Assembly: GCA_051819665.1 (NCBI GenBank)
Contig: JBNJDG010000008.1
Span: forward strand, 1 to 41,082
Length of the DNA stretch: 41,082 nucleotides
Reading direction: 5' to 3'
From: Nanobdellota archaeon
GTDB taxonomy: Archaea; Nanobdellota; Nanobdellia; Woesearchaeales; CAZZGN01
Made by a program: the position numbers and the translations under genes. The notes beneath the pieces are model-generated. The model worked only from the letters and a program-made list of their open reading frames with translations, was not told where the DNA came from and ran no database searches. The stretch's first letter is position 1; each line of letters begins with the position of its first letter. Shown piece by piece: positions 8,199 to 34,306 of this stretch.

Positions 8199-9353
8199 TC
8201 ATTCATCATGGACATTTTTTATAAGTTCATAATACCATCCATCATCAAAGACGGAAGTATCGATTATCGGTCTCATATATTCCATGAACTTTTTTGTGGG
8301 CCTCATCAGAGCCTTATCATAATAAGATGAGTCAAGAGACCTATAATTTTCCTTCCCGGCCACTTCTGAAAGAGGTATGCTGCCTGTTTTAAAGGCCTCA
8401 TCCTCAAATTCTATATTAGCCATATAACCATGCTTGCCTTCCTTCAGAAGCTCTATACCTTTCTTCCCCAGATGTATTGCAAAGTCCCTGTCCAGCTCAT
8501 AAGATCTTCCGCTCCTTACAATATGGCCGGGTTTTATAGTGGTCGCATCTATCCCAAGGTCTTTTGATATTACCTTCTGGAGCTTATCCACCACATTCTG
8601 ATGCCTCTTGACACCGAAACTGTCCGGCTGGACTTCCTCATCACCTTTGATCTCATCAAACTTTGCCTCTTTCGACACAACAACAACGCCATAATTCCCG
8701 TTCTTCCCATATGTTTTCCTGACAAGCTCAAGGAATGATTGTAGCTTGACCTCATTCTCAGGAACTACTACCAGATCGGCATTACCGAAAACTGAAGAAG
8801 CTGTAAGCCAGCCGGAATCTCCTCCCTGACTTTCTACAAGAAAAAGCCTATGTCTTGGTATCGCAGAATCCCTCCTTATATGGAACACTATGTTGGCCAT
8901 ATTGAATGCGGCTGAGGGGAAGCCAGGTGTAAAATATGTCCCGGAGAGGTCATTATCTGCGGTCTTCGGGGCTGCAATTATAGGGATTCCTTCTTCCTCA
9001 TAAAGCCTTCTGGCAAAGCCTAAAGTATCATCACCACCGATAACATAAAGATAATCGATGCCCTTTTCTTTTATCGTCTTCTTTATCTTTTCCATCCCGT
9101 CTTTTATGTTTCCGGGATTCGTCCTGCTGGTCTTGAGGAGCGTACCACCTATATCCTGTATGCCTTCAATATCCATATCAGTAAGATCGGCTATACTTCC
9201 ATTGATGAGACTCTCCCAGCCCCTTAAGCCACCATACACTTTCATATCATTTTCTCTCGCAGCCTTGATAGCGCCATACAAAGTAGCGTTCAATACCTGG
9301 GTCTCCCCTCCGCCAGTGAATATCAGAATCGATTTCCCTTTCAGATCGTCCAT
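8199..9353 (-). CDS. PfkA-family phosphofructokinase, PPi-type signature, divergent sugar site
   Basis: TGGG..LNA, GGTLLKTSR, IGGDDT, PKTADNDL, GHIVRSG; canonical MGR replaced by QGG. Confidence 0.85.
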   Translation of the reverse strand: MDDLKGKSILIFTGGGETQVLNATLYGAIKAARENDMKVYGGLRGWESLINGSIADLTDMDIEGIQDIGGTLLKTSRTNPGNIKDGMEKIKKTIKEKGIDYLYVIGGDDTLGFARRLYEEEGIPIIAAPKTADNDLSGTYFTPGFPSAAFNMANIVFHIRRDSAIPRHRLFLVESQGGDSGWLTASSVFGNADLVVVPENEVKLQSFLELVRKTYGKNGNYGVVVVSKEAKFDEIKGDEEVQPDSFGVKRHQNVVDKLQKVISKDLGIDATTIKPGHIVRSGRSYELDRDFAIHLGKKGIELLKEGKHGYMANIEFEDEAFKTGSIPLSEVAGKENYRSLDSSYYDKALMRPTKKFMEYMRPIIDTSVFDDGWYYELIKNVHDE

Positions 9354-9376
9354 CTTAAATCCTTCCCATTATCATT

Positions 9377-10735
9377 TTATATACTTTTCTGAGAGTATTT
9401 CATATCAACTTCCCTTGAGCTCGGAACACTCTCCAGATTCAGCTCATAAGTATTATAATCAAGTCTTCCTCTGGTGAATTCCCTGAAATTCTTTTGTGAA
9501 TAATCACCATCATCCCCCACCAGACAGTGATATGATGCGAAATCCAGAGAGAACATGAACTTATCCATCTCATCCATTCCACTAAGGAGCTCAGAGGCAA
9601 TCACCGCTCCCTGAAAATTATCTCCTGCATTAATGGATGTGCCTTTATTATCAAGTTTCCTTGGCATCATCTCATATATACGTGCATAATCACCTTCTTT
9701 TGATGAAAGATAGGCGGAATCAGCATCATTAGTCACGTATATCCTCGCATTTTCCTTGCCCACGATAGAAGTCAGGCCTGCTACAATATCAGTATAAGAG
9801 CCATGGCCATTATCCTTCAATCCGGAATAAGTCCCATCGACTATCTTCCTTGCTTCTTCTGTATTGAGCATAACAATATCAGCTTTTGAAAGCAGGTCCA
9901 GTGTCGACTCTTTATCCTTATTGAACATATCGGTTGTAGGAGCGACTATGATCTTCCCCTCATATCCTTCTGTAAAAGAGGCAAAATTTTTCATAAGATC
10001 CTTATTCTTCAGGCTGTTCACATAACATACATCATACTTCTTTATCTTATCGTGGTTGTTCTCGAACCAACCAGCTATCCTGGAAGGATCAAAACTCTGT
10101 CTCATCTCCTGATACCTTATGAGTGTCCTGCTGACATCAGGAAGGACGAAATTGAAAGCCTTATGCGCCGCCCAGTTGGGATCCCTCAGGAATGAGACAT
10201 CAACATTCCCGCTATCGGAAAGCATATTATCCAGCGTCCCTATATGGTTCTCATACTTATCAGTGGATTCTTCCTCCCCTCCAAGAAGCAGGAAATGGAA
10301 ATTCGGTTTAGCATAACTCTGGATAAGACCATTTCTCATTATCTTTATGGCAGCCTCTATAGAGTTCCTTGCAGGCCCGCCCATCTCTTCACCAAGCCTT
10401 CTTGTTCCGATAGCGTCAGGATCATCCTCTATCTTTTTCAGTTCCTCATCTGTAAGAGGTTCCTTCCGGAAAAGCCCTTTATCATCCTTTGTAAGGGTAG
10501 CTTTTCCTGTCCTCGACAACCTTTCACCATTCACTCCCCATTTCCTGCCGACCTTAAGTTTGCCTATCTCTTTGTTATGCTCATCCACATTAGCAAAATA
10601 AGACTTCTCATTAAGATTCCAGAAATCACCTGAAGGAGCATGATGATCCTCAACTTCGAAAATCTCATCAATACTCGGTTCCCCGCCTACAAGCACTCTT
10701 AGCTCAAGATTCCACTGCTCGTCTCTTCCCTTCAT
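9377..10735 (-). CDS. Divergent PfkB/ribokinase-family kinase with enlarged lid
   Basis: VLVGGEPSIDEIF, GGPARNS, DIVMLNTEEA and NAGDNF (GAGD-like) motifs. Confidence 0.75.
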   Translation of the reverse strand: MKGRDEQWNLELRVLVGGEPSIDEIFEVEDHHAPSGDFWNLNEKSYFANVDEHNKEIGKLKVGRKWGVNGERLSRTGKATLTKDDKGLFRKEPLTDEELKKIEDDPDAIGTRRLGEEMGGPARNSIEAAIKIMRNGLIQSYAKPNFHFLLLGGEEESTDKYENHIGTLDNMLSDSGNVDVSFLRDPNWAAHKAFNFVLPDVSRTLIRYQEMRQSFDPSRIAGWFENNHDKIKKYDVCYVNSLKNKDLMKNFASFTEGYEGKIIVAPTTDMFNKDKESTLDLLSKADIVMLNTEEARKIVDGTYSGLKDNGHGSYTDIVAGLTSIVGKENARIYVTNDADSAYLSSKEGDYARIYEMMPRKLDNKGTSINAGDNFQGAVIASELLSGMDEMDKFMFSLDFASYHCLVGDDGDYSQKNFREFTRGRLDYNTYELNLESVPSSREVDMKYSQKSI

Positions 10736-10890
10736 TCTACTGCATCACTGTTTCATCATACTTTATCATACTTCTTCCGAAATAAGATATATTTATAATT
10801 TTGGTTTTTTGAAAAATATATAATATACCACCCATTTTTGCTTTCCCAAGATTTAAATATCAAATAGAAAATAAAGAACAAGGTGATATC

Positions 10891-11964
10891 TTGAGGATAG
10901 ATAATGAGCCCAAACTTGATTTCGATGATGTTCTTATAAGACCGAAGAGAAGCACTCTCAACAGCAGGAAGGAAGTTGCCCTTGAAAGGAGATTCAAATT
11001 CCTCCACAGCAGGAGAGAATGGACAGGCATACCCATCATACCTTCCAATATGGACACAACAGGTACATTTGAGATGGCCAGAGTACTCTCAGAATATAAG
11101 ATGATCACCGCCCTACATAAATTCTACAGCCTTGAAGAGCTCGAGGGATTCTTCAGAAGCTTTGATAAACCCGATTATATAGCTTACACCCTGGGGATCA
11201 GGGACGAGGATTTCGATAAGCTGAAGAAACTCCTCGAAAAAGGCCTCGGCAGTAAATTCAATTTCATTGTTCTTGACGTTCCCAATGCCTATCTTGAACG
11301 TTTTGTGGGCAAACTCAGCGAACTGAGAGAACTCTGTCCTAATCATACGATCATAGCCGGAAATGTAGTGACCAATGACATGACAGAGGAGATCCTCCTG
11401 AAAGGTGCGGATATAGTTAAGATAGGTATAGGAAGCGGGGCATCATGCCTGACCAGAAGAAAGACAGGAGTAGGTTATCCACAGCTAGGGGCCATAATGG
11501 AATGTTCTGACGCTGCCCATGGTATAACAGGAAGGGAGAAAGGACACGGCCTCATAGTCTCTGACGGAGGGATAAGATATCCTGGAGATATCGCGAAAGC
11601 TTTCTGCGCTGCCTCTGATTTTGTGATGGGGGGCTCGATCTTCGCAGGTCATGATGAGACAGGAGGAGAGCTCATCGAAAAGAACGGCAGGAAATTCAAG
11701 AAATTCTATGGAATGAGCTCAAAGGCAGCCATGAAAGAACATTACGGAAAGGTCGCAAAGCACAGGACCAGTGAAGGGAGGGACCTTGAGATACCGTATA
11801 AGGGAAGCATAAACAACCTCCTCCTGGACATCTTCGGTTCCCTGAGGAGCACAGGTACTTACATCGGCGCATGGAGTCTCAAGGAATTCCCGAGAAGGGC
11901 AACTTTCATGACCGTACACAAACAGCTTAATACCTCACTGGAGAAGTATCAGGTAGGGAACTGA
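10891..11964 (+). CDS. guaC: GMP reductase (long, E. coli-like type)
   Basis: KLDFDDVLIRPKRSTL, KIGIGSGASCLTR, GVGYPQL, SDGG, FYGMSS; TTG start with GGTGAT SD. Confidence 0.93.
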   Translation: MRIDNEPKLDFDDVLIRPKRSTLNSRKEVALERRFKFLHSRREWTGIPIIPSNMDTTGTFEMARVLSEYKMITALHKFYSLEELEGFFRSFDKPDYIAYTLGIRDEDFDKLKKLLEKGLGSKFNFIVLDVPNAYLERFVGKLSELRELCPNHTIIAGNVVTNDMTEEILLKGADIVKIGIGSGASCLTRRKTGVGYPQLGAIMECSDAAHGITGREKGHGLIVSDGGIRYPGDIAKAFCAASDFVMGGSIFAGHDETGGELIEKNGRKFKKFYGMSSKAAMKEHYGKVAKHRTSEGRDLEIPYKGSINNLLLDIFGSLRSTGTYIGAWSLKEFPRRATFMTVHKQLNTSLEKYQVGN

Positions 11965-11988: not shown

Positions 11989-12212
11989 TTAAGTGAAATT
12001 GACAATTTCACAAATTATATCCAGGCCACTCAATCTCTAAAGGATGAGACTACACGTGACAGGGAAATAAAAGGCCTGCTTGAAGCGATGGAAAAACATA
12101 ATCTAAAAGAGGCCTGATCCTAACAGATGATGAAGAAGAGGATATAAATACAAAGAACAAAAGAATTAAAGTAAGACCAATATGGAAATGGCTACTGCTT
12201 CAGGACGTGTAA
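11989..12212 (+). pseudogene. Frameshifted C-terminal relic of a COG1373/DUF4143-type AAA+ ATPase
   Basis: Reads EID..IQATQSLKDETTRDREIKGLLEAMEKHNLKE, then after a 1-nt shift at ~12111 GLILTDDEEEDINTKNKRIKVRPIWKWLL; no start or N-terminal ATPase domain. Confidence 0.8.
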
Positions 12213-13966
12213 TAAAGCTTATCCTCGCCCTTCTGTTTCCTGTCCATCTGCGAACCGGGCTTATTGACCCTCGGTCTGTTATTCTCAGGGTCTCTCCTCA
12301 TCGTGGTATCTATGTCCTTAAGGAAAGTGTTCATGCCTTCCGCCATCGGATAAGGGCCTTTCGCTACTCCCTTTATGGCAGGCTTACCATCGAAGACCAT
12401 AATCTTCTGGGAAAGATAATCCACGAAAAGAAGGTCATGGTCAACGATCAATGCAGAAGTGCCCTTGGCTTCCATGACTTCCCTTATCACCTTTGATAAG
12501 ATAAGCCTCTGTTCGACATCGAGATAAGCGGAGGGCTCATCGAATAAGAAAAGATCAGCATCACGGGAGAGACAATGGGCTATAGCCACTTTCTGGAGCT
12601 GTCCGCCTGAAAGCTCATTGAGCTTCTTAAAGAAGAACTTCTCTATATCCAGAGGATCAATTATCTGTCCCTTGTACTTCTTCACCGCATCTCCGAGGAA
12701 TTCCATCACTGTCTTCTCACTTCCCTTCAGATACTGGGGCTTATAAGCGACAGAGATGTCCTCGTTTATCTCTCCCTCATCAGCTTCATCCACACCTGCA
12801 AGCATCTTTACGAAACTGGTCTTACCAATACCGTTTTCCCCGAGTATGCCTATGGTCTCACGGGTGTTTATCTGTCCGCCTTCTGCAGACAAGCTGAACT
12901 TGCCCAGTTTCTTCCTGACATCTTTCCAGGAACTGAGCAGCTTCTGTTCCTTCTCCTTCTTTACAGGCGCTTCATCAAAGAAATGGATCTTATGATCCCT
13001 GAACCTCATGTTCTCGTCTTTCATATATCCCTCGAGGTATATGTTTATACCCTGTTTGGTGGATTTCATGAGGCTCACTATACCATAACCCTCTTCCTTA
13101 CCGTACATAAGGTGTATAAGATCGGTCATATAATCAAGAATGATAAGGTCATGCTCGATAACAAGGACTGCTGTATTCTCATCGGCCATGTCTCTTATGT
13201 ACCTGCTCACCCTTATACGCTGCTTTATATCAAGGTAAGAAGTAGGCTCGTCAAAGACATAGACATTGGCTTTCTTCATGACCGTAGCAGCTATGGCGAC
13301 ACGCTGAAGCTCCCCGCCAGAAACAGAAGAGAGATCATTATCAAGGATGTCCTCAAGATCAAGGTCTTTTATTATGCTGTCATATATGCCCCTCTCATCC
13401 ACTTTCTTAAGAAGATCACCAACCTTGCCTTTGGCTGTCTTAGGCAACATATCAACAGCCTGGGGCTTATAACTTACCTTTATCTCCCCGGATTTCCTCT
13501 TCTCAAAATACTTCTGGGCTTCCGTACCCTTGAAATGTTCTATGAGAGCATCATCATCAGCCTCATGACCCTCTTTACCGAAATTGGGCTTAAGAACATC
13601 AGAAAGTACCTTGATGGCCGTGCTCTTACCTATACCATTCCTCCCTATTATGCCGACCACTTTGCCGAATATAGGGGTGGGAAGATTATAGAGGGCAAAA
13701 CCGTTCTTGCCGAACCGATGCACAGGATCCTTATCAAGCTCCTCCGGGAGCCTAATCATCTCAAGAGCACCAAAAGGGCATTTGTTCGCTGCTATCCTGT
13801 CAGCATCAGTTATAACATCCTCATTTACTTCAACCTTGCCGTCATCAGATTTCACAATAGCATCCTTACCCATCCTGTTCGAGGGGCTGACCTTCATGCA
13901 GAGGTACCCTCCGCAACCGTCGGGATTGCATTTGTCCTTTTTGACGACCATTATCCTGTTTCTCAT
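12200..13966 (-). CDS. rli: Ribosome recycling ATPase ABCE1/Rli1
   Basis: N-terminal Cys domain, two ABC NBDs (GRNGIGKST, SGGELQR, DEPT; GENGIGKTS, SGGQLQK, DEPS) and RPRVNK hinge. Confidence 0.96.
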   Translation of the reverse strand: MRNRIMVVKKDKCNPDGCGGYLCMKVSPSNRMGKDAIVKSDDGKVEVNEDVITDADRIAANKCPFGALEMIRLPEELDKDPVHRFGKNGFALYNLPTPIFGKVVGIIGRNGIGKSTAIKVLSDVLKPNFGKEGHEADDDALIEHFKGTEAQKYFEKRKSGEIKVSYKPQAVDMLPKTAKGKVGDLLKKVDERGIYDSIIKDLDLEDILDNDLSSVSGGELQRVAIAATVMKKANVYVFDEPTSYLDIKQRIRVSRYIRDMADENTAVLVIEHDLIILDYMTDLIHLMYGKEEGYGIVSLMKSTKQGINIYLEGYMKDENMRFRDHKIHFFDEAPVKKEKEQKLLSSWKDVRKKLGKFSLSAEGGQINTRETIGILGENGIGKTSFVKMLAGVDEADEGEINEDISVAYKPQYLKGSEKTVMEFLGDAVKKYKGQIIDPLDIEKFFFKKLNELSGGQLQKVAIAHCLSRDADLFLFDEPSAYLDVEQRLILSKVIREVMEAKGTSALIVDHDLLFVDYLSQKIMVFDGKPAIKGVAKGPYPMAEGMNTFLKDIDTTMRRDPENNRPRVNKPGSQMDRKQKGEDKLYYTS

Positions 13967-14068
13967 GGATTAGAGGGGAAGATACTTTATTTATAAGAGT
14001 AGCGGTCAAGGCATCTGAAAACCCATGAGCGATATTTTTATATATAGCAAATGATTACCTATCACCGT

Positions 14069-14251
14069 ATGGGGGCAATCAAGGAAGTACCTGAGCAGGA
14101 CTATGAATATTTATACAGATGCAAAAGGTGCGGGAATAATATGAACAAACAGGTTAGCTTAACCACTCATAAATTCGGCGGACCTGACCTGGGTTCTACA
14201 AAGATGAGAGTCTGTGCAAACTGCAAGAATGGTTCTGAACTCACCTACTGA
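14069..14251 (+). CDS. Small zinc-ribbon protein (CxxC...CxxC)
   Basis: CKRC and CANC pairs in 60 aa; TATA box at ~14037-14046 favours the ATG at 14069. Confidence 0.65.
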   Translation: MGAIKEVPEQDYEYLYRCKRCGNNMNKQVSLTTHKFGGPDLGSTKMRVCANCKNGSELTY

Positions 14252-14300
14252 ACAAAAGATTTATAAACAAATGAAAGTTCTCGAAAGACGGTGAATATAT

Positions 14301-14705
14301 ATGACGATAATGGGTATTAATTTTACGAAGATGAATGTCGAAAAGAAAGAAGGAAAGAAAGGGAAGGTCAATATATCAAATAATGTGGGCCTGAACAGTG
14401 TTGAGAAAGTGGATCTCAATGTAGGAGGAGATAACCAGGAATCTCTCAAGTTCGGATTCGCATTCAGTTCGACCTATGATCCGGAGATAGGAAAGATCGA
14501 GCTTGAAGGGAATGTTGTCTACATGACTTCCAAGGACGAAGCTAAATCTATCCTCGACGAGTGGGAGAAGAACCAGAAGGTTGACAAAGCAACGACCGAA
14601 AAGGTGCTTCCGAGTGTGCTTAACAAATGCAACACTGAAGCTTTGCTGCTGAGCAAGGAGATAAACCTGCCTTCACCAATCCCGCTGCCAAAGCTCAAAA
14701 AATAA
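14301..14705 (+). CDS. Conserved archaeal hypothetical protein, possibly SecB-like fold
   Basis: GINFTKMNVEK start, alternating beta strands and a C-terminal helix plus LPSPIPLP. Confidence 0.7.
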   Translation: MTIMGINFTKMNVEKKEGKKGKVNISNNVGLNSVEKVDLNVGGDNQESLKFGFAFSSTYDPEIGKIELEGNVVYMTSKDEAKSILDEWEKNQKVDKATTEKVLPSVLNKCNTEALLLSKEINLPSPIPLPKLKK

Positions 14706-14758
14706 TTTTTCCACAATCTTTTTAAATTAATTTCTTATTCATGAACGAAGGTGCTAAA

Positions 14759-17407
14759 ATGGCTGAAAATATAAAACTTAAAGTTGCTGAAGCAATCCAG
14801 GATGATGTCAACAAGGGTATAGTCCGAGTAGATAGCGGCTATATGTCTGAAGCTGGTGTGAAACCGGGAGAGATAGTCGAGATAGAAGGGAGCAGGAAAG
14901 CTATAGCTATAGTCGACAGGGCTTACCCAGGCGATATCGGACTGAACATCATCAGGATGGATGGTATCATCAGGAGGAATGCAAAGACTGGGATAGGAGA
15001 GATGGTCACCATCAAGAAAGCTGAGGTCACTCCAGCCAAGAAGATATCCATAGCACCTGCAAGGAAAGGACTGGTCATAAAAGCATCTTCCAATATATTC
15101 AAACAGGGGCTCCTCGGGAGAGCTCTCCAGAAAGGAGATATTGTCTCGCTGGGAGGAAGCAAGAGGAGGAGGAGCACTATGATGCACAGCTCCATGTTCC
15201 CCGACGACATTTTCAATATGCTTGACGAGAGCCCGATCGGACTGGGATTCTCCGATCTGAAATTCGTGGTGACGAATACGAACCCCAAGGGACCGGTTGT
15301 CATAGTCGAATCCACGGAAGTGGAGTTCAATCCTGAAGCTACAGAAGTAGAGGAAGACTCTTACCCTGAAGTGACCTACGAAGATGTAGGCGGGCTTGAA
15401 GGCGAGATCAAGAAGATAAGGGAGATGGTCGAACTTCCGCTCAAACACCCCGAAGTTTTCGAAACACTGGGCATTGATGCGCCGAAGGGTGTTTTGCTTC
15501 ACGGACCCCCGGGCACAGGGAAAACCCTGCTGGCAAAAGCTGTAGCTAACGAAACTAATGCCAATTTCATATCCATAAACGGCCCGGAGATAATGTCGAA
15601 ATATTACGGGCAGTCAGAACAGAATCTCAGGAAGAAATTCGAGGAAGCAGAAAAGAACGCACCGTCGATAATATTCATAGATGAGATCGATGCCATAGCC
15701 ACGAAGAGAGAAGAGACCAAAGGAGAAGTAGAGAGAAGAGTCGTAGCTCAGCTTCTCGGTATAATGGATGGCCTGAAAGCAAGAGGAAAGGTTGTAGTTA
15801 TAGCCGCCTCGAATATACCCAACCAACTGGACCCTGCACTAAGAAGGCCAGGAAGATTTGACAGGGAGCTGGAGATAAGCGTTCCTTCGAAAAGAGGAAG
15901 GGAAAAGATACTGAAGATCCACTCAAGATACATGCCCATTGACAAGAACCTGAAAAGCATAGGTGTCAACAGCACTAAAGAGGAGGTTGTCAAGCAGGTC
16001 AAGGAAAGCATAAAAGACCTTGACAAGGACAGGATAACAAAGACCCTTCTGTCTTCGACAAAACAGAATAAAGAGTTCTTCGAGATAAAGGACGATGTTG
16101 AAGATACGATCAGAAAGATAATAACAGAAAAGAAGAAACTGAAATCCATCCCTGTCCCCCTGAAAGAGACACTTATCTCAAGGATCTCCGAAGAACTGTG
16201 TTTCAGGGGGATACATAAGAAAGAGAAGGAAGAGATAACCAACAGGCTTGCAGATAAACTGAAAGAGATAAATGAAGACGAAAAGATCTACGAGATCATT
16301 GATACATCTGTAAAAGAGAGCATCCTGAGGAACATCGCCGAGATAACACATGGTTTTGTCGGTGCTGATCTGAGCGCTTTATCGAAGGAAGCAGCAATGA
16401 CCGTCCTGAGGAGGATCATGCCCGACCTCAAGTACAAGGACGAAGAGGAGATTCCGAAAGAGATACTTGAAAAGCTCAAGATAACACATAATGATTTCAT
16501 AGAAGCGCTCAAGTCAGTAAGACCTTCTGCCATGAGGGAAGTCCTGGTGGAAGTCCCTAATGTAAGATGGGAAGACATAGGGGGTCTTGACAGTGTAAGG
16601 CAGGAACTGTCTGAAGTTGTAGAATGGCCGCTGAAAAACCCCAAGGCCTTCTCTAGGATGGGGATCGAGCCGCCGAAAGGAGTCCTCCTGTACGGTGCCC
16701 CCGGAACCGGTAAGACCCTGATGGCCAAAGCGGTGGCTAATGAGAGTGAAGCCAATTTCATCGTCGTGAAAGGTCCAGAGCTATTATCAAAATGGGTCGG
16801 TGAAAGCGAGAAAGCTGTAAGGGAAGTGTTCAAGAAAGCAAGACAGACTGCCCCTACTGTCATATTCTTTGATGAGATCGATTCCATTGCTCCGAAAAGA
16901 ACAGGAGACAGTAACAATAATTCCTCAGAGAGGGTTGTCAACCAGATCCTTACTGAAATGGATGGGCTCGAGAGCCTTCATGACATAGTCATAATAGCTG
17001 CCACGAACAGGCCTGACATGGTGGACACGGCCCTCCTCAGACCAGGTAGATTCGACAGGATCGTCATGACACCTGCTCCTGATGCCAGAACAAGAGAGGA
17101 GATATTCAAGGTGCATACGAAGAACATGCCGCTGGATGATGATATTAATATATCAAAACTCGCGAAGAAAGCTGAAGGGTATGCCGGCGCAGACATTGAA
17201 TCGGTATGCAGGGAAGCTGCAATCTTTGCCCTCCGGGAGAACATAGATTCTGAAGTGGTGAAGAACGAACACTTCGACAAGGCAATGAAGAAAGTTGTAC
17301 CTTCTATCACAAAAGAGATAGAGGATACTTATAAGGAGTTGTCAAAGCACTTCACCTCTGCCAAAGCAAGGCAGATGAAGGAAGAGAAACCCGGCTATTT
17401 CGGCTGA
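14759..17407 (+). CDS. cdc48: CDC48/VCP AAA+ ATPase with an insertion in D1
   Basis: N-domain, Walker A GPPGTGKT and GAPGTGKT, Walker B DEID twice, RPGRFDR twice; SD GGTG before ATG 14759. Confidence 0.96.
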
Positions 17408-29071: not shown

Positions 29072-30706
29072 ATGGAACCTAAAGATGCAAAAGTAGCGTA
29101 TTTCAGCATGGAGATCGGCATCGAAAGCTCTATCCCAACTTATTCTGGCGGCCTTGGGGTTCTTGCAGGAGATATGTTAAGAAGCGCATCACAGATGAAC
29201 ATGCCCCTTGTCGGCATCACTCTGATATATCATAAGGGATACTTCAGGCAAAAGCTCGACAGCAACGGTACCCAGCAAGAAAAGGATAATCTGTGGAATC
29301 CCCATATACACCTGAAAAAGCTCCCTGATCAGGTGAAAGTCAATATCGAAGGCAGGGAAGTGAAGATAGGATGCTGGATCTACGAGGGAGATGTCCCTGT
29401 CATATTCCTTGATACTGATATAGAAGGCAACTCTGATTATGACCGTACCATCACAGACAAACTATACGGATTTGATGATTATTACAGGCTTGCACAGGAG
29501 ATAGTCCTCGGGATCGGCGGTACAAAGATGGTAAGGAAGCTGGGAGCTGAAGTGGAAAAATACCATATGAATGAAGGGCATTCTTCCCTTCTGGGCATGG
29601 AACTTTACGAGGGAGATCTTGAAAAGGTAAGGAAAAAATGCGTGTTCACTACCCATACACCTGTCCCTGCAGGACATGATGTCTTCGAGAAGAAGATGGC
29701 GGAAAAGATGCTCGGGAAAAAGATACCGCCGGGCATCAAGAACAAAGTCTTCAATGATAAGAAGATGAACATGACACACTTAGGACTTATGTTCAGTGGC
29801 CATATAAATGGTGTCGCAAAGAAACACACGCAGATCTCCAAAGAGATGTTCCCCGGTTATAACATAGAATCGATAACTAATGGTGTACATTCAGGATTCT
29901 GGACTTCCCCGCATTTCAGGAGACTTTTCAACAAATACATCCCAAACTGGGAGAAAGACCCTAACTCTCTCAGATCTGCCCTGAGCATACCTAATGAGAA
30001 GATATGGGATGCTCACAGGAAATCCAAGAAGGATCTCATCAACTTCGTGAACAAGAAACACAATGCACAGATGAAGGAAAATGTCTTCACTATAGGTTTC
30101 GCCAGGAGAGCTGCCACATATAAGAGAGGAACTCTGCTTCTCAGCAGACCAGAAAAACTTAAAGAGATTGCAAGGGATACAAACGGAATACAGATCATCT
30201 ACTCCGGGAAAGCACACCCTCATGATGAAGAAGGTAAAAAAGTTATCAGAGAGATCATAGGTAAATCGAAAGAACTGAAAGACAAGATAAAAATCTGTTA
30301 TGTTGAAAACTACAATATTGATATAGCAAAGAAGATGGTAGCCGGTGTGGATATCTGGCTCAATACCCCTCTAAGACCAAAGGAGGCTTCAGGTACTTCG
30401 GGCATGAAAGCCGCCCATAACGGAGTTCCTCATTTCTCGGTTCTTGACGGATGGTGGATTGAAGGCCACATAGAAGACAAGACCGGTTGGAGCATAGGGG
30501 AACACCCGAGTAAAGAACCAAAGAATGACGAAGAGAGGGATATAGAAGATCTGTACAATAAACTGGAATATGTGATTCTCCCAAAATACTACAAAGAGAA
30601 AGATGAATGGATAAACATAATGAGCCATGTGATCGCTATAAACGCATCCTTCTTCAATACACACAGGATGGTCCAGCAATACGTCCAGACAGCATATTTT
30701 AACTGA
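29072..30706 (+). CDS. glgP: Alpha-glucan (glycogen/maltodextrin) phosphorylase, short form
   Basis: YFSMEIG, YSGGLGVLAGD, HMNEGH, TTHTPVPAGHD, ARRAATYKR, GKAHP, PLP site EASGTSGMKA. Confidence 0.94.
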   Translation: MEPKDAKVAYFSMEIGIESSIPTYSGGLGVLAGDMLRSASQMNMPLVGITLIYHKGYFRQKLDSNGTQQEKDNLWNPHIHLKKLPDQVKVNIEGREVKIGCWIYEGDVPVIFLDTDIEGNSDYDRTITDKLYGFDDYYRLAQEIVLGIGGTKMVRKLGAEVEKYHMNEGHSSLLGMELYEGDLEKVRKKCVFTTHTPVPAGHDVFEKKMAEKMLGKKIPPGIKNKVFNDKKMNMTHLGLMFSGHINGVAKKHTQISKEMFPGYNIESITNGVHSGFWTSPHFRRLFNKYIPNWEKDPNSLRSALSIPNEKIWDAHRKSKKDLINFVNKKHNAQMKENVFTIGFARRAATYKRGTLLLSRPEKLKEIARDTNGIQIIYSGKAHPHDEEGKKVIREIIGKSKELKDKIKICYVENYNIDIAKKMVAGVDIWLNTPLRPKEASGTSGMKAAHNGVPHFSVLDGWWIEGHIEDKTGWSIGEHPSKEPKNDEERDIEDLYNKLEYVILPKYYKEKDEWINIMSHVIAINASFFNTHRMVQQYVQTAYFN

Positions 30707-30721
30707 TTTATCTTTCACAAA

Positions 30722-30750
30722 TTATAAATAGGTGTTAACAATGGTTAACA
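30722..30750 (+). promoter_or_regulatory. TATA box plus near-perfect 18-bp palindrome (candidate operator)
   Basis: TTATAAATA at 30722-30730, then TGTTAACAATGGTTAACA at 30733-30750 just before ATG 30753. Confidence 0.65.
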
Positions 30751-30752
30751 AC

Positions 30753-31127
30753 ATGAATAAATTACTACCACAAGAAATACAGGTATGGTATGTAATACCT
30801 GTAATAAGGAAAGAGCTTTCCAAATTCCTTGTAAAGGATCAAGGGATTACACAGAAGAAAGCCGCAGAGATGCTCTCCCTTACAGAGGGAGCTGTATCTC
30901 AATACCTGAACTCCAAAAGAGGAACTAAGATAAAATTTAACGATAAGATTCTTGATGAAATCAAGGCCTCAGCGAAAAGGATAAGCCAGAAACCCTCAAA
31001 AGTACTAGAGGAGACCATCAGGCTTCTGAACCTTGAAGATATGAAGAAGGTTATCTGTGATTTCCATAAGAAGAACGATCCTTCCTTAGATGAGGATTGT
31101 GACATCTGCAGGAAATACTGGAAGTGA
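30753..31127 (+). CDS. HTH transcriptional regulator with C-terminal Cys/His motif (COG2522-like)
   Basis: LPQEIQVWYVIP.IR, HTH TQKKAAEMLSLTEGAVSQY..KRG, and ICDFH...CDIC. Confidence 0.85.
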   Translation: MNKLLPQEIQVWYVIPVIRKELSKFLVKDQGITQKKAAEMLSLTEGAVSQYLNSKRGTKIKFNDKILDEIKASAKRISQKPSKVLEETIRLLNLEDMKKVICDFHKKNDPSLDEDCDICRKYWK

Positions 31128-31836
31128 TAGGATCTTAGAAGTAAGGAACATTGGATTCAGTAAAGAGAAGAAGATACTTGATGGTCTATCCTTCACTTTT
31201 GAAGAGAAAAAGACCTATGCAATTGTCGGACCCAATGGTGCAGGCAAATCCACTATCGCAGGAGTGATAATGGGCCTTGAAAGGTACTCGGGCCATACAG
31301 GGAAGGTAATTCTCGACGGAAAGGACATTACAAGCATGAGCATAGACAGGAGAGCCAAGGAAGGCATAACTCTGTCCTGGCAGGAGCCCGCAAGATACAA
31401 AGGCCTTAAGGTAAAAAGATATCTTAATTCCGACAAAGAGAGCATGAAGCAATCCCTCCTCAAAGTCGGCCTTGACCCTGATGATTATCTGGAGAGACCT
31501 ATAGACCATAATCTGAGCGGCGGAGAGAGAAAGAGGATAGAACTTGCCTCTATAATCCTCCTCAAACCAAAGTACGTACTTCTTGATGAACTTGACTCCG
31601 GGATAGATATAGGGGCGATAGAGAAGATATTCGAGGTAATAGACCTGCTTAAAAGTGAAGGAACAACTGTCATTCTCATAACCCACAGCCCCAAAGTCCT
31701 GGAAAGATCCGAATATGCCTATCTGTTATGCCATGGAGAGATTGTAGACAAAGGACCTTCTGAAGAGATCCAGCGATATTTCAGGGATAAATGCCTTACA
31801 TGTACACACAAGAACAAGCCGGGGGGAGAAAGATGA
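31090..31836 (+). CDS. sufC: SufC/SmsC-type Fe-S assembly ATPase (start uncertain: 31090 or 31132)
   Basis: GPNGAGKST, WQEPARY.GL, LSGGERKRIELAS, DELDSGID, C-terminal CLTC.H.N. Confidence 0.9.
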   Translation: MRIVTSAGNTGSDRILEVRNIGFSKEKKILDGLSFTFEEKKTYAIVGPNGAGKSTIAGVIMGLERYSGHTGKVILDGKDITSMSIDRRAKEGITLSWQEPARYKGLKVKRYLNSDKESMKQSLLKVGLDPDDYLERPIDHNLSGGERKRIELASIILLKPKYVLLDELDSGIDIGAIEKIFEVIDLLKSEGTTVILITHSPKVLERSEYAYLLCHGEIVDKGPSEEIQRYFRDKCLTCTHKNKPGGER

Positions 31837-32756
31837 GCGCCTATGACGAGATGCTTGAGATTGCAGGCATCCATGAAAAACTCAAGGATCCCAAGGTTGC
31901 TACTGTCTGTCTTGATTACAATAAAGTTCTGAATGATAAGACCGTGGAAGGCCTTAACGTGGATTACAAAGAAACAGAAGACGGTATAGATGTCAATATC
32001 CATGTAGAGAAAGATGCAATGATAGAGAAACCAGTACAGATGTGCTTCGCTGTAATGCACAGATCAGCTGAACAGAGGATCAACCTTAAAGTTAAGATGG
32101 AAGACAATTCAAGGATATCCATCATAGGCCATTGTATATTCCCTTCAGGTAAGAAGATCAAGCATATAATGCACGGAAAAATCGATATAGGAAAGAATTG
32201 CAGATACGATTATTATGAGAAGCATATCCATAATGAAGAAGGGACCGTCGAAGCATACCCTCAGGCAGAGGTAAATGTCGGGGAGAACTCAAGATTCAAC
32301 ACTATCTTCGACCTCCTGAAAGGGAGGGTCGGGAAACTTCTTATAGACTACAGTACAAAGGGGGCGAAGAACAGCTCTATAAACCTGGATTCCAGAGTCA
32401 GTGGCTCGGGGGATGATGATATCGAGATAAGGGAGACTGCAGAGCTTAATGGCGAGAAAGCAAATGGGGTGTTGAGGTCAAGGGTTGCAGTAAAAGACAA
32501 TGCTGAAGCCCATGTATTCAACAGGCTTATTGCCAGGAGCGCTTATTCAAGAGGGCACGTAGACTGCACAGAAATAATGACAGGTAATGGCAAGGTAAAA
32601 GCCTATCCTGAGGTTGAAGTTCTCCATCCAAAAGCGAGGGCAACCCATGAGGCCAATCTGGGTGGTGTGGACAATAAGCAATTGGAGACTCTCATGGCGA
32701 AAGGGCTAAGCGAAAAAGAAGCCGAAGAGATGATAATAGAAGGTCTCCTCAGTTGA
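31833..32756 (+). CDS. SufB/D-family (SmsB-type) Fe-S assembly scaffold
   Basis: Beta-helix repeats, GHVDCTEI, THEA.LG.VD.KQLETLMAKGL; ATGA overlap with sufC. Confidence 0.9.
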   Translation: MSAYDEMLEIAGIHEKLKDPKVATVCLDYNKVLNDKTVEGLNVDYKETEDGIDVNIHVEKDAMIEKPVQMCFAVMHRSAEQRINLKVKMEDNSRISIIGHCIFPSGKKIKHIMHGKIDIGKNCRYDYYEKHIHNEEGTVEAYPQAEVNVGENSRFNTIFDLLKGRVGKLLIDYSTKGAKNSSINLDSRVSGSGDDDIEIRETAELNGEKANGVLRSRVAVKDNAEAHVFNRLIARSAYSRGHVDCTEIMTGNGKVKAYPEVEVLHPKARATHEANLGGVDNKQLETLMAKGLSEKEAEEMIIEGLLS

Positions 32757-32887
32757 GGACCAGATTCCATAATAAAATAGCTTGATTCTAATAAATATCT
32801 TTTTAAATCATTTATCATTCCCTGTCTCTGATTAAATGGGTTGATCAGGATAAGATATTCAATAATAAGACTTAAGGAGTGATAATC

Positions 32888-34306
32888 ATGAAAAAGACAA
32901 AAATACTCGCAACTGTATCGGACAGGAAATGCGATATAGAATTCCTCAAGAGCCTCTATAATGAAGGCATGAATGGTGTAAGGATAAACACGGCACATCA
33001 GGAACCTGCTGATTCAAAAAAGGTTATAGAAAATGTGAGAAAAGTCTCAGAGAAGCTGCCCGTTGTTATAGACACGAAAGGGCCTGAGATAAGAACGAAA
33101 TGCGAGGAAGAGATATATGTCGAGAAAGGGGAAAAGATCGCCATAAAGAAGAGCGAGAACACAGAATGCGAAGAGAAGAAATACTTCCTTACAAACTATG
33201 AAGATTATGTAACTGAAGTGCCTGTTGATTCATCTGTTCTTGTTGATGACGGGGACATGGAACTCAAGGTCATAGGGAAGAAAGAAGATTATCTTATATG
33301 CGAAGCTCAGAACAAAGGAAAGATAAAGAACAAGAAAAGTATAAACACGCCCGGTGTGGACATAGGTCTTCCTCCACTAACAGAAAAAGACCAAAGATAT
33401 ATTGACTTTGCCATAGAAGAGGACGTGGATTTCATTGCCCATTCTTTTGTGAGGAACAAAGAGGATGTCCTCAGGATACAGGAGAAACTCGACCAACATA
33501 AAAGCAATGTGAAGATAATCGCAAAGATAGAGAACCAGCAGGGAGTGGATAATATAGACGAGATCCTTGATAATGTATACGGGATAATGATCGCAAGAGG
33601 TGATTTAGCGATAGAGATACCCGCACAGAAGATCCCAATGATCCAGAAAAGACTGGTGAAGAAATGCATAGAAAGGAAGAAACTTGTGATAACCGCAACC
33701 CAGATGCTTCACTCCATGATAGAGAACCCAAGACCGACAAGGGCAGAGGTTAACGATGTAGCCAATGCCATTTATGACGGGACAGATGTGATCATGTTAA
33801 GCGGTGAGACAGCTTATGGACAATATCCACTTGAATCCGTAAACACCATGGCAAAGGTTGCCGACGAGATTGAAGAGGATAAACTGTCTACACAAAATAT
33901 AGATGTCGTAGGGATCGCAGATGAAGTCCCCGCATTCCTTGGAAGCACAGCCATAAGGGCCACCCAACATCTACCTGTGAAAGCCATCCTGATAGATACT
34001 CTCACCGGCAGGACAGCAAGGTACATCTCTGCATTCAGGGGCAAAAAACCGATCTTCACCGAAGCTTATGATAAACGGGTAATGAGAGAGCTTGCGCTTT
34101 CTTACGGTGTATTCCCTTCTTACATGGTGAGGGAAGACACAACAACAGTCAACTCTTTCATAAAGAAATCCCTTACACCCTTGCTGGAGAACAGGTTAGT
34201 GGATAAAGAAGACCTTATACTGACTGTTGCAGGAAGCTTCGGACCTAGCCACGGCGCCTCTTTCGTGGAGATAAGTAAAGCGAAGAACATGGTGAATCTT
34301 GAATGA
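32888..34306 (+). CDS. pyk: Pyruvate kinase
   Basis: KTKILAT, RINTAH, DTKGPEIRT, IAKIEN, ARGDL, ATQML.SM, RPTRAEV.D, MLSGETA.G. Confidence 0.96.
   Translation: MKKTKILATVSDRKCDIEFLKSLYNEGMNGVRINTAHQEPADSKKVIENVRKVSEKLPVVIDTKGPEIRTKCEEEIYVEKGEKIAIKKSENTECEEKKYFLTNYEDYVTEVPVDSSVLVDDGDMELKVIGKKEDYLICEAQNKGKIKNKKSINTPGVDIGLPPLTEKDQRYIDFAIEEDVDFIAHSFVRNKEDVLRIQEKLDQHKSNVKIIAKIENQQGVDNIDEILDNVYGIMIARGDLAIEIPAQKIPMIQKRLVKKCIERKKLVITATQMLHSMIENPRPTRAEVNDVANAIYDGTDVIMLSGETAYGQYPLESVNTMAKVADEIEEDKLSTQNIDVVGIADEVPAFLGSTAIRATQHLPVKAILIDTLTGRTARYISAFRGKKPIFTEAYDKRVMRELALSYGVFPSYMVREDTTTVNSFIKKSLTPLLENRLVDKEDLILTVAGSFGPSHGASFVEISKAKNMVNLE

Follow-up and report, generated by a model that had tools for sequence, protein, structure and literature searches.

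An archaeal ABCE1 lacking one of two iron-sulfur ligand sets, and the range of ABCE1 heads in the Woesearchaeales

The ABCE1 gene and its surroundings

The window, meaning the whole 41,082-nucleotide stretch of DNA analysed here, encodes an ABCE1/RLI protein of 588 aa on the minus strand (12200..13966). The gene was recognised with NF009945, tblastn and the RLI model, and a structural model of the protein was compared with PDB 3bk7. At full length the protein scored 771 bits against NF009945, for which the curated cut-off is 469, and thus belongs to the orthologous family. Its ferredoxin-like head, which we call type A (residues 1-74, 13745..13966, minus strand), aligned to 3bk7 at E 1e-20, and head, helix-loop-helix insert and hinge were all present. 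The twin ABC ATPase body with its hinge (12203..13645, minus strand) has Walker A, Q-loop, signature, Walker B (E240, E477) and His switch (H272, H510) at both sites. The initial annotation had described both ATPase sites as intact; in 64 aligned type A proteins the motifs of both nucleotide-binding domains were invariant, as were the hinge-2 arginines.

The annotation had also advised a check for a second, canonical ABCE1. The genome searched for such a paralogue comprises 64 contigs and is 96% complete. Neither tblastn nor the RLI model found a second ABCE1 in it, the only match over the RLI cut-off being the window gene itself. In the head search, each of 17 other type A genomes that were checked had a single match to the head.

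Divergent from ABCE1 and before CDC48 lie two ORFs (14051-14705, plus strand), one of 66 aa with a zinc ribbon and one of 134 aa with no Pfam or NCBIfam match. The CDC48 gene (14741-17407, plus strand) encodes 888 aa, with a 733-position model matching over residues 11-871. The same three neighbours were found in a second genome, G001. An insertion of roughly 130 residues separates the ATPase domains of CDC48. Also near ABCE1 are genes for a phosphofructokinase, a PfkB-like kinase and a GMP-reductase-like protein (8199-11964).

A SufC-like gene and a short SufB/SmsB-like gene form a pair further along (31090..32756, plus strand), with glucan phosphorylase and pyruvate kinase genes around them (29072-34306). 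Both members of the pair scored below the NCBIfam cut-offs, and the divergent, 321-aa SufB/SmsB-like protein was the sole SUFBD match of the genome. Elsewhere the genome had 12 radical SAM matches, a dicluster ferredoxin and, by motif, several larger multi-cluster proteins. We take the multi-cluster proteins to be PFOR, Rnf, [FeFe] hydrogenase and ferredoxin. A general loss of Fe-S metabolism was ruled out by the radical SAM proteins, the Suf-like pair and the multi-cluster proteins, and the ligand loss described below is therefore not part of a general Fe-S failure.

One ligand set is missing from the head

Alignment to the ABCE1 of P. abyssi, human and S. solfataricus (the last compared through a canonical relative) identified C13, C18, C23 and C63 as ligands 1, 2, 3 and 8. 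Ligands 1-3 lie at 13898..13930 and ligand 8, within K-C-P, at 13778..13780, both on the minus strand. With C465 they make up the whole cysteine content of the protein, and the ORF reading and the alignment both bear out the earlier statement that the head has no other Cys. Ser27 (13886..13888, minus strand) stands at the position of Cys 4. The second-cluster loop (13790..13813, minus strand), where a helix is predicted at residues 55-61, is remodelled, with I52, D56 and A59 for Cys 5, 6 and 7 and a one-residue insertion. The codons at the replaced ligands 4-7 are AGC, ATA, GAC and GCA. Of the residues first proposed for these positions, S27, D56 and A59 held, but T53 did not. Family f57 relatives still keep the ligand-5 Cys directly before the same T-D-A motif, so ligand 5 corresponds to Ile52, and T53 lies one residue after it. 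Ala36 (13859..13861, minus strand) occupies the position of a ninth Cys, human C38, that was followed in an order-wide ligand survey.

Four of the eight Cys of a canonical two-cluster ABCE1 are thus present. Which set is ABCE1-type and which ferredoxin-type is reportedly laid out by Barthelme et al. 2007. The two cluster names themselves are confirmed in PMC8153317. The human sets are C16-C21-C25-C65 and C29(38)-C55-C58-C61 in a review table (PMC13255074). This matches the grouping into 1/2/3/8 and 4-7 on which the initial annotation was built and, with the human sets as given there, one whole ligand set is missing from the window head.

Type A heads are conserved

A search with the window head kept 104 proteins of 115 candidates, the query counted in. 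All 96 full heads retain C13, C18, C23 and C63 and have no Cys at 27, 52, 56 or 59; in the remaining 8 of the 104 the start was called downstream and the head is incomplete. C63 was found in 104/104. The replacements were nearly as constant as the ligands: D56 occurred in all 104 homologues, position 27 was Ser in 102/103 and Ala in one, position 52 was hydrophobic in 104/104, position 53 was Thr or Ser throughout, and position 59 was Ala or Ser. I58, N48, E49 and D42-G43-K44 were also invariant in type A heads. Between families, with the Cys columns excluded, type A heads shared 73% identity versus 56% for canonical heads, and body identity was 61% for type A and 57% for canonical proteins.

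As judged from these alignments, the type A pattern is one of purifying selection on a new design. "Selection rather than decay" had been proposed for the window gene, and the fixed replacements, the higher head identity, the invariant ATPase motifs and the finding of no canonical paralogue all support it. A sequencing or assembly error was ruled out by the 96 homologues and by a genome of the same family that shares both the head and the upstream neighbours. Named homologues were mostly labelled Woesearchaeota or Nanoarchaeota, which is why we call the order Woesearchaeales. Some titles read "uncultured Methanosarcinales" and one "Bacteroidota" (labels as recorded), with heads of the same types.

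A series of head states across the order

The head was used to search 401 Woesearchaeales genomes, and ABCE1 was read in 204 genomes (202 of these and two others). The 204 genes were picked by score or family and not at random, and their counts should not be read as frequencies; two additional partial copies in G013 and one unpublished genome were excluded. Written as ligands kept of 1/2/3/8 and ligands kept of 4-7, the states were (4,4) in 89 genes, (0,4) in 57, (4,0) in 31, (4,1) in 12, (4,3) in nine, (4,2) in three, (3,4) in two and (0,0) in one. At least one complete ligand set was present in 203/204 genes. Since either set was the one lost, each ligand set is dispensable, at the level of sequence. 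The alignment of relatives' N-domains, recommended at the outset for mapping the loss, thus confirmed it and showed it to be wider than noted, with reciprocal losses and intermediates.

The two sets were lost in different ways. Set 1/2/3/8 is nearly always either whole or entirely gone: 202/204 genes have four of its ligands or none. Set 4-7 erodes stepwise with ligand 5 first, 24 of the 204 genes being part-way, and the replacing residues differ between families. Nine natural heads have seven Cys, ligand 5 being the missing one. Independent losses carry at least four distinct replacement motifs for set 4-7, with unrelated residues in families f99, f129 and f86, and three for set 1/2/3/8. One type A motif with the same indel recurs in nine families, and most type B genes share one motif. 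At L028 (G027) and L041 (G015), just one ligand of set 1/2/3/8 was missing.

Type B is the reciprocal head, in which Cys 4-7 and the ninth Cys are kept and 1/2/3/8 are lost. It was found in 57 genes of 25 families (loci L029, L031-L035 and L094-L150; proteins P0105-P0224), with three different replacement motifs, and all of the 120 best of 758 matches to a type B search had the pattern. Its structural model was confident, with a helix at 15-24 where ligands 2-3 had been. All 148 order genes in which set 4-7 is complete have the ninth Cys, and all 43 that keep 1/2/3/8 and no more than a single ligand of 4-7 have lost it. Since P. abyssi and S. solfataricus have two clusters but lack this Cys, it is not required as a ligand.

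Outside the order, 28 genomes of the same class yielded 22 ABCE1 genes, of which 20 were read. Ligands 4-6 were absent from seven of them, with a different motif (one of the seven was read short of ligand 8), and ligand 5 alone from one; type B occurred in none of the 20. A second single-set head type was seen at L178, L181, L184 and L185 (f86) and at L311, L322-L325, L328 and L329. Ligand positions 4 and 6 of this type hold an Asp and a His that are conserved and might form a small metal site, and the type resembles the cysteine-free head.

The cysteine-free end of the series

The only (0,0) gene belongs to G155. Of 79 matches to its head, 78 had no Cys in the first 95 residues, among them proteins of cultured Haloplanus, Haloarcula, Halosimplex, Natronobacterium and Halopiger and of two nanohaloarchaea. 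Ten haloarchaeal plasmid records matched the cysteine-free head, and two Haloarcula sinaiiensis plasmid proteins fell inside a cysteine-free 90% cluster. P0227-P0301 stand for the cysteine-free ABCE1 of cultured haloarchaea, in part plasmid-borne; one gene lies at L331:6001-7791 on Haloarcula sinaiiensis pHsi204, and one near an IS1595 transposase. As in the window protein, ligands have been lost and the head conserved. However, the window head is only 17-20% identical to the cysteine-free head, represents a separate lineage and keeps one full set. A D-P-x-N-R-S-G...G-F-H motif is common to the cysteine-free heads, f86 and seven of the 20 genes from other orders. This shared motif suggests a path of cluster loss from two to one to none.

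Heads and bodies have different histories

An unrooted FastTree of 194 bodies, from which 10 short ones had been dropped, largely recovered families and genera, with the head states scattered over it. Each of the genera g41, g123, g153 and g155 holds both canonical and type B genes. A single clade of the eleven type A bodies was rejected (AU p 1.9e-6, based on a quick LG+G4 search), and the heads of the same rows formed a 100/100 clade, a result built in part into the definition of the type. In a tree of RNA polymerase from 28 genomes the same two main groups appeared as for the bodies, a type A clade was again rejected (p 0.0008), and the family of the window was placed among canonical and type B families. 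On RNA polymerase, G308, which has a canonical head, is the close sister of the type B genome G363, with branches of 0.06. Deep nodes were weakly supported in the trees, and an initial 40-row tree left most of its branching unresolved. Because bodies follow the RNA polymerase tree and heads do not, heads have likely been exchanged between lineages by recombination, as these phylogenies indicate. Upstream synteny gave no usable signal of a head swap.

For the window gene itself, the sequence comparisons amount to moderate evidence of a swap. Its head is 82-85% identical to the heads of family f58, the bodies of which are about 60% identical; the best matches of its body outside its own family are canonical (65-66%). 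The linker to Walker A1 (residues 75-115, 13622..13744, minus strand) is closest to f58, at 90-93% versus 85% to a member of its own family, and may have travelled with the head, depending on the donor considered. The signal after the head was significant with one of three donors, with segment bounds set after seeing the data, and the test with f1 and f58 together gave p 0.024. The crossover zone likely lies near the end of residues 75-115.

A sharper case is P0225 (L142, G155), the head of which is 78% identical to the RLI of Haloplanus aerogenes and the body 45%. To a type A genus-mate the body is 56% identical and the head 20%. After the head, informative sites side with the haloarchaeal protein 10 to 0, with a sharp breakpoint. 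P0225, P0226 and P0273 are chimeras of a haloarchaeal-type cysteine-free head and a Woesearchaeales-type body, with the breakpoint near residues 93-99. Third-position GC of the G155 gene is 0.73 versus 0.37 in the genus-mate, and its bin is uncertain. Contamination was first suspected, but other assemblies contain this chimera too, as P0226 within a four-member cluster.

Recent DNA transfer was considered and rejected: four-fold sites were saturated (head 0.30 vs body 0.29) and gave no date. Because synonymous sites are saturated, the exchanges appear to be old, and because the trees are unrooted their direction is not fixed. Ser27 codons were mixed (24 AGY and 6 TCN of 30).

Predicted structure and ribosome contacts

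The AlphaFold model of the window protein agreed with P. abyssi 3bk7 at TM 0.92 over 593 columns. The head was its weakest part, with pLDDT <50 at residues 25-33. A helix is modelled at 55-61 behind a T-D-A-D cap (T53-D54), with local pLDDT of about 66-74, and from the model we infer that it fills the lost second-cluster site. The C1-C3 loop is almost identical to that of canonical relatives (e.g. L090 and L157). The single-cluster Pfam model Fer4_15 matched residues 8-70 below its cut-off (18.5 bits vs gathering 22.4, E 0.0035), and a canonical relative matched Pfam dicluster models.

In PMC7196836, the ribosome contacts of the S. solfataricus head are R2, P25, R28, K59, I68 and N70. The first three are kept in the window protein as R4, P28 and R31. 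The K59 equivalent is Asn, which is common in canonical relatives too, while I68 is Met and N70 is Arg. Across 43 reduced heads, the R2 equivalent was Arg in 40, P25 was kept in all, R28 was Arg or Lys in all, and the I68 position was Met in 30. Lys or Arg at the N70 position occurred in 15/43 reduced heads versus 1/91 canonical heads.

A one-cluster head and its alternatives

Taken together, the comparisons indicate that the window ABCE1 is probably a working recycling factor, with a head that carries one [4Fe-4S] cluster instead of two. In single-cluster ferredoxins, the lost cluster site is replaced by a helix and packing. By likeness to these, we propose that the second-cluster loop became a capped, slightly longer helix, with the bulk of Met6 and Met70 filling the space. 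Such a head would still be a rigid wedge, pushed against aRF1/Pelota by ATP-driven closure, and would also block subunit rejoining. The clusters would then be scaffolds, either one replaceable. Set 4-7 may have worn away stepwise several times and set 1/2/3/8 been dropped as a block elsewhere, and finished heads would have moved through recombination close to Walker A1 and the conserved linker, the ATPase body being inherited vertically.

Four Cys would also suit Zn or another single ion, in a head without any Fe-S; the cysteine-free heads (78/79 matches) mean that a cluster is perhaps unnecessary, and the model is uncertain at residues 25-33. We consider this unlikely, since in spacing and sequence both the C1-C3 loop and the K-C-P-F are like those of two-cluster relatives, a Zn site, being smaller, should have remodelled both, and the cell encodes many Fe-S proteins. 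It is far less probable still that a second cluster or metal is held by oxygen ligands, namely Ser27, Thr/Ser53, Asp54 and Asp56. The constancy of D56, the near-constancy of S27 and the restriction of position 53 to Thr or Ser would fit such a site, and P. furiosus ferredoxin has a single Asp ligation. However, Ile and Ala stand at two of the four positions, loop glycines are replaced, one residue is inserted, and the independent losses in f99, f129 and f86 left unrelated residues. Thr and Asp at the start of helix 55-61 would explain the conservation without a metal, and we know of no natural cluster without any Cys ligand.

The loss could also be real, with the shared heads arising by convergence, or from a single ancestor seen through poorly resolved trees, and no recombination at all. 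The weak deep nodes, the missing synonymous signal, the quick LG+G4 search behind the AU tests and independent recurrences such as Met at I68 and Lys/Arg at N70 leave some room for this. It nevertheless seems improbable to us, given that independent losses differ in motif, yet one motif and indel is shared by nine families, that type B G363 and canonical G308 are such close sisters on RNA polymerase (0.06), and that all ten informative post-head sites of P0225 side with the haloarchaeal protein. We give very little credence to a protein that no longer recycles, or does so poorly, with another factor or an unassembled canonical paralogue taking over. In its favour, the assembly is 96% complete, in 64 contigs, and yeast genetics finds the ligands essential. 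Against this, no second copy was found, the 17 further type A genomes had one head match each, and catalytic, hinge and ribosome-contact residues are conserved.

Comparison with known systems

The window ABCE1 shares the twin ATPase motifs, the hinge and the R2, P25 and R28 ribosome contacts with canonical ABCE1 (P. abyssi 3bk7, S. solfataricus 6tmf, eukaryotic ABCE1/Rli1). It differs in that four of eight ligands are gone as a set, one residue is added, the replacements are fixed and the N70 equivalent is Arg. Single-cluster [4Fe-4S] ferredoxins derive from dicluster ferredoxins, and they too keep one ligand set; the Fer4_15 match of the window head is weak. Unlike these ferredoxins, the window head is a wedge fused to an ATPase, keeps the wide C-x4-C-x4-C spacing and implies no electron transfer.

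In PMC13255074, PMC6088178 and PMC3442406, ABCE1 is described as needing eight Cys and two clusters. The viability of yeast requires no fewer than seven of Rli1's eight Cys (PMC13255074, PMC3442406), so simple ligand loss is not tolerated there. Rli1 C58A (Cys 6) is viable, with a [3Fe-4S] cluster and sensitivity to oxidants (PMC3442406). The 4-7 cluster is thus the one that tolerates damage, in parallel with the nine natural seven-Cys heads. C58A differs in losing ligand 6 and retaining a partial cluster, whereas ligand 5 is the one gone from the seven-Cys heads, and type A has none of the four. We found no literature report of natural ABCE1 ligand loss or of single-cluster, reciprocal or swapped heads, in a search of openly accessible papers, supplements aside.

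On balance we lean towards the ABCE1 head being an exchangeable module, with DPANN archaea having both clusters, either one or none, and heads traded by recombination between families and even with haloarchaea, some of whose cysteine-free copies are plasmid-borne. If so, neither cluster would have a chemical role in splitting, both serving as scaffolds that can be replaced, and a naturally occurring head could relieve ABCE1 of some or all of its need for Fe-S. The candidate roles of the clusters are structure, redox sensing or both. The order offers a natural matched series on closely related ATPase bodies, with two clusters, 1/2/3/8, 4-7, seven Cys or none. With it, the role of each cluster can be probed using evolved, stable heads and not destabilised point mutants. 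The domain-level exchange indicated here inside a core translation factor also bears on the use of ABCE1 as a phylogenetic marker for DPANN archaea.

Oxygen and iron stress

Oxygen and iron stress were considered as drivers in a comparison of 70 hand-picked genomes, with strong SufB defined as E below 1e-40. In yeast, cluster loading into Rli1 is a target of oxidants (PMC3442406). Strong SufB was found in 20/24 genomes with type A or partial heads, 18/20 with type B and 10/26 with canonical heads, i.e. in 38/44 reduced versus 10/26 canonical heads before correction for kinship. Superoxide dismutase occurred in 16/24, 17/20 and 14/26, and the pyruvate:ferredoxin oxidoreductase family in 13/24, 9/20 and 19/26, respectively. 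With kinship removed, 11 pairs gave 7.2 to 1.5 for SufB (median p 0.11) and nothing for superoxide dismutase or pyruvate:ferredoxin oxidoreductase. Oxygen or iron stress as the driver was set aside, as it did not pass the kin-corrected test. That the loss is favoured because cluster loading becomes cheaper or less fragile towards oxidation is a lead only. A SUFBD match was absent from 17 of the 70 related genomes, 13 of which have a canonical ABCE1. The window genome is itself an exception to the SufB trend, having the weak Suf-like pair alone.
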